In this document: in pieces, positions 867 to 6,402 of the stretch | Position numbering within the stretch: the stretch's first letter is position 1 | Layout: every line of letters starts with the position of its first letter | NCBI GenBank assembly: GCA_016929015.1 | Contig: JAFGJQ010000043.1 | Coordinates: forward strand, 1-61,771 | Direction: 5' to 3' | Length of the DNA stretch: 61,771 nt | From: Phycisphaerae bacterium | GTDB taxonomy: Bacteria; Planctomycetota; Phycisphaerae; UBA1845 | The notes under the pieces: model-generated | Told to the model about the DNA's origin: nothing | Seen by the model: only the letters and a program-made list of their open reading frames with translations | The model's database searches: none | Program-made: the position numbers and the translations under genes

Positions 867-1484
867 TCAGAGCTGTATAATCAGGCTGATGCACACGTAG
901 AGCGCGAGCAGCGAAATGATCACTAACGCAGCAACGGCCATACCCCGGCGGGCCCGTCGACGAAGGGCCAGGATGGTCAGGACCAGACCGGCCGCCCAGG
1001 TAATCACCATGCCACAGGCCCCCACGCTCAACCCGAGCGCGACGGGAGGGATCTTCCCCTTCTGGGCGTCTTCCATCCACTGCTTCTGCAGCTCGGCAAT
1101 CGAATCCTGCATCTCCTCCACCGAGCTGCCGGGCTCGACCGCACCCATCATCTGCGTAACGGTCAGAATACCCACGCCCACAAGACAAAGAACAGCAAGC
1201 AGCGACGCCACCAGGGCCCAAACGGCATAGGGGTTCCCCTCGGCGACCCCCACACCCGGCGGACCATATGGAGCAGCCGCTCCGTACGGAGCATCCGCCA
1301 AACCTTCAACCTGCTCGACATTGCCGAGCGGTTTGGCCACCGGAGGCGACAGGCGATCAATCGTCGACGCCGCCGGCGCGGTGATCGTGCGGCGGCAGTA
1401 CGGGCAGGCCACCTGCCGGTGCGCCCATTCGTCATCCACTTCGATGGGCTGCTGACAGCCCGGACAGGCAAACTGAATCGCCAT
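867..1484 (-). CDS. membrane protein with N-terminal double-CxxC zinc ribbon
   Basis: ORF 867..1529. The preferred start is MAIQFACPGCQQPIEVDDEWAHRQVACPYCRR (ATG at 1484), which avoids overlap with the upstream gene. There are two CxxC pairs, a Pro/Gly-rich linker and then 3-4 hydrophobic helices (VWALVASLLAVLCLVGVGIL, VALGLSVGACGMVITWAAGLVLTILAL, VAALVIISLLALYVCISLII). Confidence 0.6.
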   Translation of the reverse strand: MAIQFACPGCQQPIEVDDEWAHRQVACPYCRRTITAPAASTIDRLSPPVAKPLGNVEQVEGLADAPYGAAAPYGPPGVGVAEGNPYAVWALVASLLAVLCLVGVGILTVTQMMGAVEPGSSVEEMQDSIAELQKQWMEDAQKGKIPPVALGLSVGACGMVITWAAGLVLTILALRRRARRGMAVAALVIISLLALYVCISLIIQL

Positions 1485-1518
1485 GGCTTGCTGTCTCTGC
1501 TTACGCCATTGGAACGTC

Positions 1519-3261
1519 TCAGGGGGCAACCAGGTTCAGGTCGCTGATGTCCTCGCCCCCCCGTTCGCCGGTTGTGCTGAATCGCGTAATCTTCCTGCCG
1601 GAATCCACAACAAAGAGGAAGTACAGCTCGTAATCCCCCTTGAGGCTCCAGTCCTTGATCCGCTGGAAACCTCGGACGCCGCCCAGCGACCCGATGACCT
1701 CGGGGAAGTACTGCACTTCCATCACCCGCCGGCCCCCGACGTCGGCCACGGCAATCTGTCCGCAGATCTTGTACTGCGCGCCGGATTCGTCCGTGACGAG
1801 GTAGTTCTTCACCGTCTTGACCGCAAAGCTCTTGGCCTGCCCGAGCAGGCTGCCCGCCCGCAGGTTCACCACGTCCACCTGGAGAAGCGCCTTGCCCTCG
1901 GGCACCTTCAGCCGGTGCAGGGGCTCGCCCGCCCCGGACGTCTCCAACGTGCTGATGACGTGTCCGCTGATCAGCTCACCGTCGCGCATCTCGGCGTCGG
2001 CAACCGACGTGAAGTAGACGCCCGCGTGCGGCAGCGCGTTGCCGAAAGACGCCCCCGTCACGTCCGCGCCGTGCGTCCGGCCGCGCGTCTCCGGACCGGG
2101 CCGACCGGCGCCGTCCCGTTCGGACGGCAGCGGCGGTGTTTCCTCCGCCACGGCGGGGGGCAGGGCGTCTGACGTCACCTTCACCGCCGCCCGCGCGCCC
2201 ATCTTGTACTCCAGAAACACCGGCTCGAACGCATGGCCCTTTGAAACCGGTCCCACCTCGGGCAACTCAAACACTACGGAAATCGAGCCGTCGGCGGCCG
2301 GCGTATACAGCTCACTGGCTGCCCACTTCGTCTTCCCTCGCTCGTCTCGCCTGACGAGAAACCGCTGGTGCTTCTTCGTATCGAACACCGCGATCGGATG
2401 GAACTGCTCCATCACCCCGAACCGACCCCGCCCGACCAGCCGGATCTGATACAACGCAAAACGGTGCTTGCCATCCTCGTCCTGGGCGTCGCTGGTCGGC
2501 TTGAACGTGACCGCCCAAAGCTCCCTGCCGCCTTCCTTCCCGTATGTCGGATCCGGCTCCGCCTTCTCGTTGACCGTGTTTCCCATCTCATTCACACCGG
2601 TCGTAATCCGATAGACGTAGTTCTCCCGAACCATCGAAACGAACTGGATCGCGTCCCGCGGCGCCAGGCACCGGACATCGCGCGGGGCGGTCTGGTTCCA
2701 GCCGATTTCGGTCACGTAATCCGGGTGCTCCAGCCGCCACTCCCGCTCGCCGCTGAACACGCCGCTCGAAAAAAGCGAGGCCAGCCTCACCGCAAAACGG
2801 TCCGGCGAAAACAGCAAACCGTTCGGCTCCGCCTTCGGGTCGAATTTCTCGTCCTTGACCTTGATCTGCCGGAAGCCCAGAAACGGCTCGCCGAACGGCA
2901 GCATCTGCAGGGCCACACCCACCACGCCCATGATGCACAAGGCGGTCACCAGCCCGAAGGCCACCCCACCCACGCGGTCCACGATGCTCGGCAGCAGGCA
3001 GCTCCGCCGCAGCAGGGCATCCAGCGTCAGGCGCAGCGTCACCAGAGGCACCACAAAGCAGATCGCCAGCGACAAGGGAAGGGCAAAATCCGGCTTCCAC
3101 TGGATCAGCCACTCCAGGGCCACGTATTCGTGCAATGCGAAGGCAAACACCAGGCTCAGCACGGTGATGACGCACATGATCATCGCGCTGAACAGGCCGT
3201 GGATGGACTGGTAAAAGGCAACGGCCCCGATCAGCGCAATGAGAAACAGCGAAACCGCCAT
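1519..3261 (-). CDS. 580-aa membrane protein: CvpA-like 4-TM N-terminus plus a large soluble domain of unknown function
   Basis: The N-terminal ~125 aa form four hydrophobic helices (MAVSLFLIALIGAVAFYQSIHGLFSAMIMCVITVLSLVFAF...VGGVAFGLVTALCIMGVVGVAL). The layout resembles colicin-V-production (CvpA) family proteins. I recognise no motif in the remainder. It starts 16 nt downstream of the GspE-like gene. Confidence 0.6.
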   Translation of the reverse strand: MAVSLFLIALIGAVAFYQSIHGLFSAMIMCVITVLSLVFAFALHEYVALEWLIQWKPDFALPLSLAICFVVPLVTLRLTLDALLRRSCLLPSIVDRVGGVAFGLVTALCIMGVVGVALQMLPFGEPFLGFRQIKVKDEKFDPKAEPNGLLFSPDRFAVRLASLFSSGVFSGEREWRLEHPDYVTEIGWNQTAPRDVRCLAPRDAIQFVSMVRENYVYRITTGVNEMGNTVNEKAEPDPTYGKEGGRELWAVTFKPTSDAQDEDGKHRFALYQIRLVGRGRFGVMEQFHPIAVFDTKKHQRFLVRRDERGKTKWAASELYTPAADGSISVVFELPEVGPVSKGHAFEPVFLEYKMGARAAVKVTSDALPPAVAEETPPLPSERDGAGRPGPETRGRTHGADVTGASFGNALPHAGVYFTSVADAEMRDGELISGHVISTLETSGAGEPLHRLKVPEGKALLQVDVVNLRAGSLLGQAKSFAVKTVKNYLVTDESGAQYKICGQIAVADVGGRRVMEVQYFPEVIGSLGGVRGFQRIKDWSLKGDYELYFLFVVDSGRKITRFSTTGERGGEDISDLNLVAP

Positions 3262-3277: not shown

Positions 3278-4963
3278 CTACTTGCCCGGCTCGTCCCGCA
3301 AGCCGCGCAGAATCTCGTCCATGCTCGTGACCCCCTCGATCACCTTCAGCAACCCCTCTTCCATCAGGTAGTGCATCCGGGCCTTGCGCGACTGCGCCTT
3401 GATCAGTTTCAACGGCGCGTTGTCGGCGATCATCGCCCGGATGTTCTCGTCAATCTTCAACACCTCGAACAGGCCCGTTCGACCCACATAGCCGCTGCCC
3501 TGGCACGTCTGGCAAATGATCTCCCGGCCCTTCTTGTCGTAGACCGGTTCCGTGGGCGGCGAGTAAAACGTCTCGATCTTGTCCACCGGAAGGTTGAGCT
3601 TCTTGAGCTTGGCCGGGTCCGGCCGATAGCCCACCCGACACGCCGGGCACAGCTTCCGGACCAGACGCTGGCTCACGGACCCCACCATGACCTGGGCCAC
3701 CAGTTTGCTGTCCTCCACCATCGCCATGAGCCGGGCCAGGGCCTCGATGGCGCTACGGGCCTCCATGCCCACATAGAGCTTCTTCTCATCCGCCGCATTC
3801 GCCGCGATCTGGGCGCTGTCACGGTCCGCGCATTCCCCCACCATCACGATGTCCGGCTCGCGGCGGAGGACGGTCTGCAACATGCGGGCGTAACTCACGC
3901 CCTCGTCCCCCTCCCCCTTGTACGTATGCTGCGTGATGTTGTCGATGTCCAGCAGGGGCCGGCGCTCCAGCGTGTAGATGTTCTGCATGAAGGCGTCGTG
4001 CTCCCGCAGCACCGCGTACTGCGTCGTCGTCACCCCGGATTCCGGCGGCCCGCTGAACAGCACGATCCCGTGCGGCTCCCGAATGAGTTCCTTCACGATT
4101 TCTTCACGCGGCCCGGCCAGCCCCAGGTCCGCCAGCCGACGCAGCTCCGCGCTGGTCTGCACCCGCAGCCGCAGCCGCTCACCCTGCGTCGATCCCGACG
4201 TCTGAATCTCGATGAACCCCAGGTCCACGTCGCCCAGCAGGCCGGCCTTCACACGGCCCTTCTGCGGACGACGCCGCTCCTCCGGATTCAGACCGCCCAG
4301 GCGCTTGAGATACCGCAAAAGCCGCTCGCCGTGGTCGGGCGGACCCGACTGCTGGGGCTGCTCGGCCACCACCCCGTCGATCTTGTAGAAGACCCGCGTC
4401 CGCTCCGGTGTGACCAGAACGTCCGCAAGGCTCGATCGACGCCACAACACGTCAAACACGAAGTCCTGCACCGCGTCGAACATCTGACGCTCCTGCAGGT
4501 CCTCCGGCTGATGAACCGCCTTGCCCTCGAAATTGGCCAGGTGGATCCGCAGCCCCTTGTCTGATTGGGCCGCCTGTTTGTCTCCCTTGGCCCGAGCCAT
4601 GACCCCCTTGATGTGATTCCAGGTCAGGACCCGCGCGTCCGGAACCACCCGACCGTTCCGATGGAAGACGTACGCCAGGGCGGATGCCCCCGCCAGAACG
4701 ACCCAGAATGACAGGCCGATGAAGTAGCTTGCGCCGGACCAGGGCGGCAACAGGCACACCAGCAATCCGGCGATGCCTCCGGCCAACACGATCAGGTTCC
4801 ACTGCTCGCGCTTGGTCTTCACCACGTCCGTGTCACGGTCCACCCACTGGCACAGGTAGCACCACAACACGAACAGCACGAGCACGGCGGCGATTTTGAC
4901 GTAATTGAAGTATCCGGGGTGGACCGACGAAAATTGGGCCAGCAAAGCCATGCTGTTTTGCAT
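3278..4963 (-). CDS. GspE/PilB-family secretion-ATPase homologue, membrane-anchored, with degenerate catalytic motifs
   Basis: The fold markers are retained: tetracysteine CPAC...CQTCQGSGYVGRTGLFEVL and the Walker B region LRREPDIVMVGECAD. Walker A reads GPPESGVTTT (no Lys, 4028-4051). The Asp box reads TLERRPLLDI and the His box KKLYVGMEARSA. The N-terminal ~100 aa carry 3 predicted TM helices. Confidence 0.85.
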   Translation of the reverse strand: MQNSMALLAQFSSVHPGYFNYVKIAAVLVLFVLWCYLCQWVDRDTDVVKTKREQWNLIVLAGGIAGLLVCLLPPWSGASYFIGLSFWVVLAGASALAYVFHRNGRVVPDARVLTWNHIKGVMARAKGDKQAAQSDKGLRIHLANFEGKAVHQPEDLQERQMFDAVQDFVFDVLWRRSSLADVLVTPERTRVFYKIDGVVAEQPQQSGPPDHGERLLRYLKRLGGLNPEERRRPQKGRVKAGLLGDVDLGFIEIQTSGSTQGERLRLRVQTSAELRRLADLGLAGPREEIVKELIREPHGIVLFSGPPESGVTTTQYAVLREHDAFMQNIYTLERRPLLDIDNITQHTYKGEGDEGVSYARMLQTVLRREPDIVMVGECADRDSAQIAANAADEKKLYVGMEARSAIEALARLMAMVEDSKLVAQVMVGSVSQRLVRKLCPACRVGYRPDPAKLKKLNLPVDKIETFYSPPTEPVYDKKGREIICQTCQGSGYVGRTGLFEVLKIDENIRAMIADNAPLKLIKAQSRKARMHYLMEEGLLKVIEGVTSMDEILRGLRDEPGK

Positions 4964-5085: not shown

Positions 5086-6402
5086 TCACCCGATGATGCC
5101 ACCACCCGAAACGCTAATCCCTTTGAGCCGCATACGCAACTCATCCGGGTTCGGGGCAACCGAGTATGCCGTCTTCGAGGAAATGAACTCCTCCACCACC
5201 AGCTTACGCAGATACTCGCCGAAGTCGATCATCCCCTCGTTGTACGAATTCCGGATGACGCCCAGAATGTCGTTGTCCCGCTTCTCCGAAATCAGCTTCC
5301 GCACCGTGCTGTTGGCGATCATGATTTCCACGGCCGGTATCCGCGGCACGTCCGCCCGCAACCCCGGCAGAAGCTTCAGGCAGATGATCGCCTGCAGGTT
5401 GAACACCAGCGAGCTGCGCACCAGGTCCCGGGCGTCCTCCGGAAACAACTCCAGCACGCGCGTGATCGTGCTCGACGTGCCCGACGCATGCACCGTCCCG
5501 AACACCAGGTGACCCGACTCCGCCGCCTGAAGTGCCGCTGAAAAAGTTTCCTCGTCGCGCATTTCCCCGATGAGCACCACGTCCGGGTCCTCACGCATCA
5601 GGTACTTCAGCGCGTCATGGAAGTTGTCCACGTCCAGCCCGATCTCACGCTGGTTGATAAACGCCTTCTTGTCCGTGTACATGAACTCGATCGGGTCTTC
5701 CACCGTCACGATGTGGCACGCGCGCGTCTGGTTGATCTGCTCGATCATCGCGGCGATCGTCGTACTCTTCCCGCTGCCCGTGATGCCTGAAACCAGCACC
5801 AGGCCCTGATGCAGCTCCGCAATCGTGGCCAGAGACGTCGGAAGATGCAGCGCGTCGTAATCCAGAATCTCAAACGGAATCCGACGGGCGGCCACCGACG
5901 TCTTCCCCCGCTGGCGGAACACGTTGATGCGGAAGCGAGCCGCCTCACCGAACTGGTAGGCAAAGTCCATCGACCCCTTCCGCTTGTAGATCTCAATCTG
6001 CTCCGGAGTCATGATCTCATAGATCATGGCCTCGATCTCATCGTTGGCCAGCGGACCGCCCTTGATCGACTTGATGTGCCCGCCCATGCGCATTCGGGCA
6101 CGCGACTCCGCCTTCAGGTGAAGGTCCGAAGCCCTCATCTTGTTGACCGTCTTGAAGAACTTGTCGATCCGCTTGGAGCCGTTGCGAGCGGCGGGGCCCT
6201 CCTCCGACTCCACCGCCAGAATCTCCACCGGCTCATCTGTGATTTGTGGGGCATCGTTTCCGCCGGGCTGTTCGGCGGCCGTCTCGTTCAATGCTGGCTC
6301 GTCCACGTGGCTCACCCTCTGTCCTTCGGCGTGTGGGACATCGATCCCCCCGATCGATGCGTCAACATCCGCGTTTCTTGGGTTTGGATTGCTACGGACC
6401 AA
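5086..6402 (-). CDS. pilT: PilT/PilU-type retraction ATPase with ~100-aa acidic N-terminal extension
   Basis: All four catalytic motifs are intact: Walker A GITGSGKSTT, Asp box TVEDPIEFMY, Walker B REDPDVVLIGEMRD, His box GHLVFGTVHAS. Confidence 0.9.
   Translation of the reverse strand: MVRSNPNPRNADVDASIGGIDVPHAEGQRVSHVDEPALNETAAEQPGGNDAPQITDEPVEILAVESEEGPAARNGSKRIDKFFKTVNKMRASDLHLKAESRARMRMGGHIKSIKGGPLANDEIEAMIYEIMTPEQIEIYKRKGSMDFAYQFGEAARFRINVFRQRGKTSVAARRIPFEILDYDALHLPTSLATIAELHQGLVLVSGITGSGKSTTIAAMIEQINQTRACHIVTVEDPIEFMYTDKKAFINQREIGLDVDNFHDALKYLMREDPDVVLIGEMRDEETFSAALQAAESGHLVFGTVHASGTSSTITRVLELFPEDARDLVRSSLVFNLQAIICLKLLPGLRADVPRIPAVEIMIANSTVRKLISEKRDNDILGVIRNSYNEGMIDFGEYLRKLVVEEFISSKTAYSVAPNPDELRMRLKGISVSGGGIIG

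Follow-up and report, generated by a model that had tools for sequence, protein, structure and literature searches.

A membrane-anchored PilB/GspE-like pseudo-ATPase encoded between PilT-family and CvpA-like genes in Phycisphaerae

ATPases of the secretion superfamily are understood almost exclusively as soluble hexamers that drive PilC/GspF platforms for pilin fibers. The archaellum adds an inactive ATP-binding protein, FlaH/ArlH, as the partner of its FlaI motor. Here we describe an arrangement that differs from both: a PilB/GspE-like protein of 561 amino acids (P0001) that carries its own membrane anchor, has lost the residues for nucleotide hydrolysis and is encoded between a PilT-family ATPase and a CvpA-like membrane protein. 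Its gene lies on the minus strand at positions 3278–4963 of contig JAFGJQ010000043.1 from a Phycisphaerae bacterium (assembly GCA_016929015.1); positions 1–61,771 of the contig are referred to below as the window. The original prediction, made from the sequence of the window alone, gave no strand for this open reading frame. It took the product for a conserved pseudo-enzyme of the GspE family with degenerate hydrolysis motifs, a preserved zinc tetracysteine and three N-terminal transmembrane helices. Literature searches found no description of an anchored GspE or PilB, of a PilB-type pseudo-ATPase of this kind or of a link between CvpA and PilT.

The T2SSE profile (PF00437) of Pfam aligned to residues 184–553 of the protein with an E value of 8e-54 and a score of 183 bits (cut-off, 24.9). 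An AlphaFold model built on 40 orthologues, with a mean predicted local distance difference test score (pLDDT) of 86.6, has three N-terminal helices followed by a PilB-type N2 domain (N2D) and C-terminal domain (CTD). Foldseek returned PilF, PilB and EpsE as the best matches to this model, and the soluble part superposed on them with TM-scores of 0.87–0.90 (normalized to the target) at 28–29% identity. The RecA-like fold of the N2D and CTD and its match to T2SSE place the protein in the secretion ATPase superfamily. Yet its scores against the NCBIfam models of GspE (TIGR02533, 217.7 bits) and PilB (TIGR02538, 195.2 bits) fell far under the respective cut-offs of 630.25 and 675.65. By its predicted fold the protein is a member of the PilB/GspE branch, one without the catalytic features and genomic associations of GspE and PilB.

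The register of the active-site motifs was set by HMMER alignment to Thermus PilF (5oiu), and all coordinates (minus strand) were checked by exact translation. The Walker A remnant (4022–4051) reads GPPESGVTTT against GPTGSGKS in PilF and has a valine in place of the lysine. The motif had been read correctly in the original prediction, but the span given for it, 4028–4051, holds just its first eight residues. In the Asp box remnant (3953–3973), TLERRPL stands against TIEDPVE, with the aspartate replaced by arginine and the second glutamate by leucine. The His box remnant (3752–3787) reads EKKLYVGMEARS against TGHLVIATLHTN in PilF, and lysine or arginine occupies the position of the first histidine. 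The Walker B region (3824–3859) reads EPDIVMVGECAD against DPDIIMVGEIRD and keeps its glutamate. Alignment and translation agree that the Walker A, Asp and His boxes are degenerate. Also kept are the GRTGLFEVL motif and, as a predicted zinc module recognized by sequence, the tetracysteine (3503–3649) formed by CPAC (3638–3649) and CQTC (3503–3514). A misassigned motif register was considered and ruled out by the agreement of the PilF alignment, the Pfam alignment and the structural superposition. A canonical P-loop lysine, the finding that was to overturn the original prediction, appeared under no alignment and in none of the 40 orthologues. Of the other T2SSE paralogues in the same genome, 12 were readable across the P-loop, and every one of them shows the canonical GxxGxGK[ST] motif.

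The same losses recur in the 40 aligned orthologues, which span 52–77% identity. None has the Walker A lysine, and the position is taken by valine (21), isoleucine (6), methionine (6), leucine (5) or alanine (2). Arginine (25) or lysine (11) replaces the Asp box aspartate, leucine stands at the second glutamate in 35 sequences, and the first histidine of the His box is always arginine (28) or lysine (12). Hydrophobic side chains at the lysine position and basic ones at the acidic and histidine positions fit a former active site that may be locked in one state. Walker B is more variable. Its core is retained in the window protein (VMVGEC), as originally noted, but its glutamate is not invariant among the orthologues (glutamate in 30, aspartate in 6, histidine in 2, asparagine and glutamine in 1 each). 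Invariant throughout are the four cysteines, the RRPQxG and LRREPD motifs, G310, Cys378, Asp380, Lys395 and Tyr397. Retention of the tetracysteine likewise holds for the window protein and most members of the wider family, but not for all: three of the four cysteines are gone in the dead anchored proteins of one Phycisphaerae family, which suggests that the zinc module is dispensable in some lineages. In this family, the proteins at L018 (5216–6952, minus strand) and L036 (5398–7125, minus strand) read ALAKSSRE and VPCPESGG where others read KLCPACRV and IICQTCQG.

The catalytic domains are preceded by an anchor domain (residues 14–125; 4589–4924, minus strand) recognized from hydropathy, the model and conservation. 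A hydropathy scan detected hydrophobic segments at residues ~22–40, 56–73 and 80–99 and none elsewhere in the protein, and the AlphaFold model has helices at 21–48, 52–71 and 79–105. Scan and model agree on the three transmembrane helices of the original prediction. The conserved features of the domain are a cytoplasmic loop, QWVDRDTDVVKTKREQWN, and the motif YVxHRNGRV after the third helix. No Pfam family covers the domain, and the profile search returned chance-level matches only. Because the ATPase domain must be cytoplasmic, the N-terminus is expected to lie outside, the first loop inside and the second loop outside. The distant anchored members carry a signal-like N-terminal extension that fits this topology. 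In the active Planctomycetaceae proteins at loci L007 (7121–8953, minus strand), L008 (6505–8334, plus strand) and L009 (6758–8707, plus strand), a hydrophobic signal-like N-terminal segment is followed by 50–100 presumably periplasmic residues ahead of the first anchor helix.

The gene is under strong constraint. Against three close orthologues (90–95% amino acid identity, unsaturated dS of 0.33–0.53), the ratio of non-synonymous to synonymous substitution rates (dN/dS) was 0.084, 0.099 and 0.112. The stretch of dead motifs gave 0.07–0.12, a constraint equal to that on the rest of the gene, and the adjoining active PilT gene gave 0.07–0.15 in comparable pairs. Orthologous reading frames were uninterrupted at all 23 loci from named assemblies (20 of them code for 556–582 amino acids) and none restores the lysine. 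Furthermore, none of the 59 genome matches to the anchor profile described below has an internal stop. The frameshifts or stops that were to speak for decay are therefore absent, and the reading of the gene as a conserved pseudo-enzyme is upheld. The only split copy is from one metagenome assembly (L015, 5348–8746), where the anchored protein is divided into 382 and 171 amino acids and the CvpA-like protein into 425 and 151. Because the neighboring gene is split too, a frameshift introduced by sequencing or assembly is more probable here than decay. We conclude from these comparisons of sequence and model that the protein is a pseudo-enzyme, its catalytic residues gone and its predicted fold kept by purifying selection over a long evolutionary span.

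The pseudo-ATPase gene is part of a conserved gene block. We compared 37 distinct loci, which represent more than 15 families; the position of PilT could be assessed at 36 of these loci. A CvpA-like gene lies directly downstream of the gene for the anchored protein at all 37 loci, and a PilT orthologue lies directly upstream at 32 of the 36. The four loci with no adjoining upstream PilT gene belong to one metagenome contig and to three Planctomycetaceae genomes. Two of these genomes are Gimesia-like and have their best PilT orthologue ~10 kb from the pair formed by the active anchored ATPase and CvpA genes (G095:C1, 6966269–6978739; G344:C1, 324708–337050); in the third (G173), the orthologue is ~180 kb away. 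None of the blocks at the 37 loci contains a gene for a GspF/PilC platform, GspL/PilM, a pilin or pseudopilin, a prepilin peptidase or a secretin. The five high-scoring canonical GspE/PilB genes of the genome are located elsewhere, and GspF genes adjoin at least four of them. All of its GspF genes are on contigs other than the window, and the genome has several PilT paralogues. In a scan for promoters and terminators, neither intergenic gap between the three genes showed a terminator-like site; the matches were at consensus level only and are not used as evidence.

The upstream gene (5086–6402, minus strand) encodes a canonical ATPase of the PilT/PilU family, with 388.8 bits against TIGR01420 (cut-off, 319.1) and intact GITGSGKSTT, TVEDPIEF, GEMRD and GHLVFGTVHAS motifs. 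Its stop codon is 122 nucleotides from the start of the pseudo-ATPase gene. The PilT proteins of the module form an orthologue group of their own, with 43–50% identity versus at most 42% for the other PilT paralogues. The open reading frame in the window begins with a TTG codon and has an acidic, low-complexity N-terminal extension of ~75 residues; its true start may be further downstream, because the orthologues are mostly 370–415 amino acids long.

The downstream gene (1519–3261, minus strand) starts 16 nucleotides after the stop codon of the pseudo-ATPase gene and codes for a membrane protein of 580 amino acids that Pfam and its model tentatively place in the CvpA family. PF02674 is the sole Pfam match of the window protein and, with 27.5 bits, scores just under the cut-off of 29.3. 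It was likewise the sole match of 15 of 17 orthologues and of all 8 distant counterparts, precomputed matches are available at two further loci (L016 and L017), and NCBI names some of the orthologues 'CvpA family protein'. The NCBIfam models returned nothing useful for this protein or for the zinc-ribbon protein encoded after it. The predicted structure (pLDDT 74.8) begins with four transmembrane helices, after which come two beta-rich domains connected by a disordered, proline-rich linker (residues 369–399). By the positive-inside rule, the beta-rich domains would be periplasmic. E. coli CvpA has ~160 amino acids. In most of the lineages sampled outside Phycisphaerae, the CvpA-like protein has ~190–230 amino acids versus 580 in the window, where ~450 extra residues make up the two beta-rich domains and the linker.

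Relatives of the pseudo-ATPase are numerous. A word-indexed search recovered more than 500 full-length proteins of 550–590 amino acids, and those with a name are all from Phycisphaerae or Planctomycetota assemblies. A phmmer search of 1.84 billion cluster representatives with residues 1–185, which include the anchor domain, placed this domain in 322 clusters at 50% identity. The 150 best anchor matches include 48 full-length proteins, 44 of which lack all four motifs. A few of the 48 are canonical or intermediate, having either an intact Walker A with the rest gone or a Walker A lysine changed to arginine. A scan for related loci with a single sequence reached relatives at the level of Phycisphaerae only, and the genome counts that follow cover Planctomycetota. 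A full-length profile at E ≤ 1e-100 detected the protein in 35 of the 401 genomes that were sampled from the phylum and overlooked half of those in the class, so that it was replaced with a profile of the anchor only. This profile found exactly one copy in 59 of the 401 genomes, including all 24 of the class Phycisphaerae. One large family among the 59 corresponds to Planctomycetaceae by its named matches (Gimesia, Maioricimonas, Rubinisphaera and Schlesneria); family labels of the sampled genomes rest on kinship tags and on named matches from other searches. In Planctomycetaceae and five further families, the same anchor is joined to canonical GPTGAGKSTT, VEDPVEY, GEIRD and GHMVFSTVHAN motifs.

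The existence of active anchored proteins allowed us to order the events. In trees rooted on the soluble GspE/PilB paralogues of the genome (quick IQ-TREE searches with SH-like approximate likelihood ratio test support only), the anchored family is monophyletic with support of 99–100, and its active members branch basally or as sisters of the dead proteins. Dead proteins fall in two places, a small clade of two families and a large clade with every Phycisphaerae member, which indicates at least two losses of catalysis. For the lineage of the window, the trees place this loss before the diversification of Phycisphaerae. As the anchor is common to fully active members, anchoring and catalytic loss are separate events. 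Anchoring is, on these trees, ancestral in the family and older than the loss. Direct anchoring had been singled out in the original prediction as unusual, which is true of secretion ATPases generally but not within the anchored family, where it is ancestral and present in active members too. Tree and synteny together indicate that the ancestral module consisted of an active anchored PilB-like ATPase, an active PilT and CvpA, and that Planctomycetaceae and several further families still have this form with two active ATPases.

The demonstrated composition and gene order of the module, the fold and anchor of the pseudo-ATPase, its residue losses, the purifying selection on it and the order of evolutionary events frame a proposal for its function. 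We consider it probable that the pseudo-ATPase is a non-hydrolyzing, anchored scaffold that couples the PilT motor to the CvpA-like membrane protein, a mechanism that we infer from these features. The anchored protein would form a PilB-like ring that its own helices fix to the membrane, in association with the CvpA-like protein. The ancestral module would have had two motors, as do type IVa pili with PilB and PilT. After the catalytic loss in Phycisphaerae, the anchored protein would no longer split ATP and could form a fixed ring, scaffold or stator at the inner face of the membrane, linking the CvpA-family protein encoded downstream to the active PilT-family hexamer encoded upstream. PilT would then be the sole motor and supply all of the energy. 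The CvpA-like protein would stand where the PilC/GspF platform stands in other systems, and its large predicted periplasmic domains could carry the output into the envelope. The three proteins would thus make up a compact machine that needs no PilC/GspF platform, pilins or secretin. More tentatively, and with somewhat less than even confidence, we suggest that PilT, the anchored PilB-like protein and CvpA are an unrecognized envelope machine powered by secretion ATPases, with a CvpA-family transducer and neither filament, platform nor secretin. We favor, with low confidence, an envelope-directed role over one in fiber assembly or DNA uptake. The reasons are the predicted periplasmic location of the added domains and the connection of CvpA with envelope stress and the secretion of colicin V in E. 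coli. Specifically, CvpA has been connected with ColV secretion, resistance to deoxycholate and the sigma-E response (bioRxiv 10.1101/2020.09.25.314492).

Several points weigh against a PilT-driven scaffold. Contact among the three proteins is deduced from gene order only, and CvpA is itself a protein of unknown function (bioRxiv 10.1101/2020.09.25.314492). A fold search of the PDB with the model of the CvpA-like protein returned no significant match for its beta-rich domains (best E value 0.015, TM-score below 0.15). A permanently anchored ring would also have to leave PilT access to the CvpA-like protein, for which stacked rings, mixed hexamers and alternation are possible solutions. Lastly, nucleotide binding may persist, as the backbone of the P-loop (G310 and T312–T314) and the new basic residues R/K334, R/K394 and K395 are conserved. 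This last point can be taken further. In a rebuilt pocket, the pseudo-ATPase could bind a nucleotide or another phosphorylated ligand, perhaps with slow hydrolysis, and serve as a sensor or switch that gates PilT instead of a passive scaffold. Such a pocket would account for the near invariance of G310 and T312–T314, for the basic residues fixed at the former positions of the Asp box aspartate and first histidine, for the invariant K395, Y397, C378 and R368 and for the retained arginine of the N2D motif RRPQxG. Furthermore, arginine replaces the Walker A lysine in many family members, a change that usually keeps binding and abolishes hydrolysis in P-loop NTPases. However, all 40 close orthologues have a hydrophobic residue at this position, 35 have leucine at the second glutamate of the Asp box and the catalytic glutamate is not invariant. 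The pattern of wreckage also differs among lineages, which disfavors one new conserved active site, and we regard a ligand-binding sensor or switch as unlikely.

Even less probable is a role of the protein as accessory subunit or regulator in one of the conventional systems (type IV pilus or type II secretion) encoded elsewhere, with only an incidental link to CvpA. The genome does provide candidates for such a system (the five canonical GspE/PilB genes, with GspF beside at least four, and the PilT paralogues), and an inactive paralogue with a membrane tether might in principle compete with these proteins for partners. Yet the order of PilT, anchored protein and CvpA is found across the 37 loci and more than 15 families with no pil or gsp gene in the block, the anchored gene is single-copy regardless of the number of pilus systems, and the PilT of the module is an orthologue group apart from the other paralogues. 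Finally, the degeneration of all four hydrolysis motifs is what a decaying, functionless former ATPase gene would display, a scenario of negligible probability: simple decay is ruled out by the intact reading frames of the orthologues examined, the one copy in each of the 24 genomes of the class and dN/dS values of 0.08–0.11, and residues invariant to the family have arisen. The reading that we favor is the anchored scaffold, which would couple PilT to the CvpA-like protein.

We also identified a gene (867–1529, minus strand) outside the conserved core whose start overlaps the stop codon of the CvpA-like gene by 11 nucleotides. The open reading frame codes for a protein of 220 amino acids with a double CxxC zinc ribbon at its N-terminus and transmembrane helices at its C-terminus. 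We found a homologue (40% identity) only in the nearest relative (L001), which suggests that the gene is a lineage-specific addition to the module, its fourth gene.

The arrangement departs from the soluble, platform-driving hexamers: the PilB-type subunit has its own anchor, PilT is dedicated to the module and a CvpA-family protein would substitute for the platform. The module is a single-copy core component of every Phycisphaerae genome sampled. The repeated loss of catalysis next door to PilT offers a natural experiment on the roles that PilB-type proteins have beyond hydrolysis. The module also ties CvpA, a widespread inner-membrane protein, to a motor. If our proposal is true, membrane proteins of the CvpA family may generally be driven mechanically, a first mechanistic handle on CvpA, and the dead subunit would mark the reduction of a system with two motors to a single motor and a stator. 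These ideas are testable with the active versions in cultured Planctomycetaceae, and genetic tools are under development for the phylum.

Comparison with known systems delimits what is shared and what is new. The pseudo-ATPase shares its fold with PilB/GspE proteins (PulE, EpsE; Thermus PilF, 5oiu/5it5; Geobacter PilB, 5tsh; Vibrio EpsE, 1p9r), together with the tetracysteine zinc module and the RRPQxG and GRTG.FE motifs. Unlike them, it has no Walker A lysine, Asp box or His box, it carries three transmembrane helices in place of their soluble N1 or MshEN domains, and no GspL/PilM or GspF/PilC partner is encoded beside it. Its closest relatives are the active anchored proteins of Planctomycetota annotated as 'Type II secretion system protein E' or 'GspE/PulE family protein', such as those of Gimesia fumaroli, Maioricimonas rarisocia, Rubinisphaera margarita and Schlesneria paludicola. 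To our knowledge, these active proteins are uncharacterized. They belong to the same tree family and share with the pseudo-ATPase the anchor (W..D loop, WN and Y..RN..V) and the CvpA-family gene downstream, whereas they differ in having canonical motifs and a signal-like N-terminal extension and, in Planctomycetaceae, in that PilT is not adjacent.

The antagonistic PilB/PilT pair of type IVa pili offers a parallel for the module as a whole: genes of the PilB and PilT types lie side by side, and their products probably act on one membrane partner. In the module, however, the PilB-type member is dead and tethered, the partner is CvpA-like rather than PilC, and pilins are missing. The four-helix CvpA-like domain predicted in the downstream partner resembles that of the E. 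coli colicin V production protein (CvpA, PF02674), yet E. coli cvpA is not linked to a secretion ATPase and the protein of the window is ~450 residues longer, with its two beta-rich domains. FlaH is a non-hydrolyzing P-loop protein that works with an active hexamer of the secretion superfamily, a concept that we propose for the pseudo-ATPase too. FlaH differs in being RecA/KaiC-like rather than a PilB paralogue, in keeping its Walker A motif and in having no membrane anchor.

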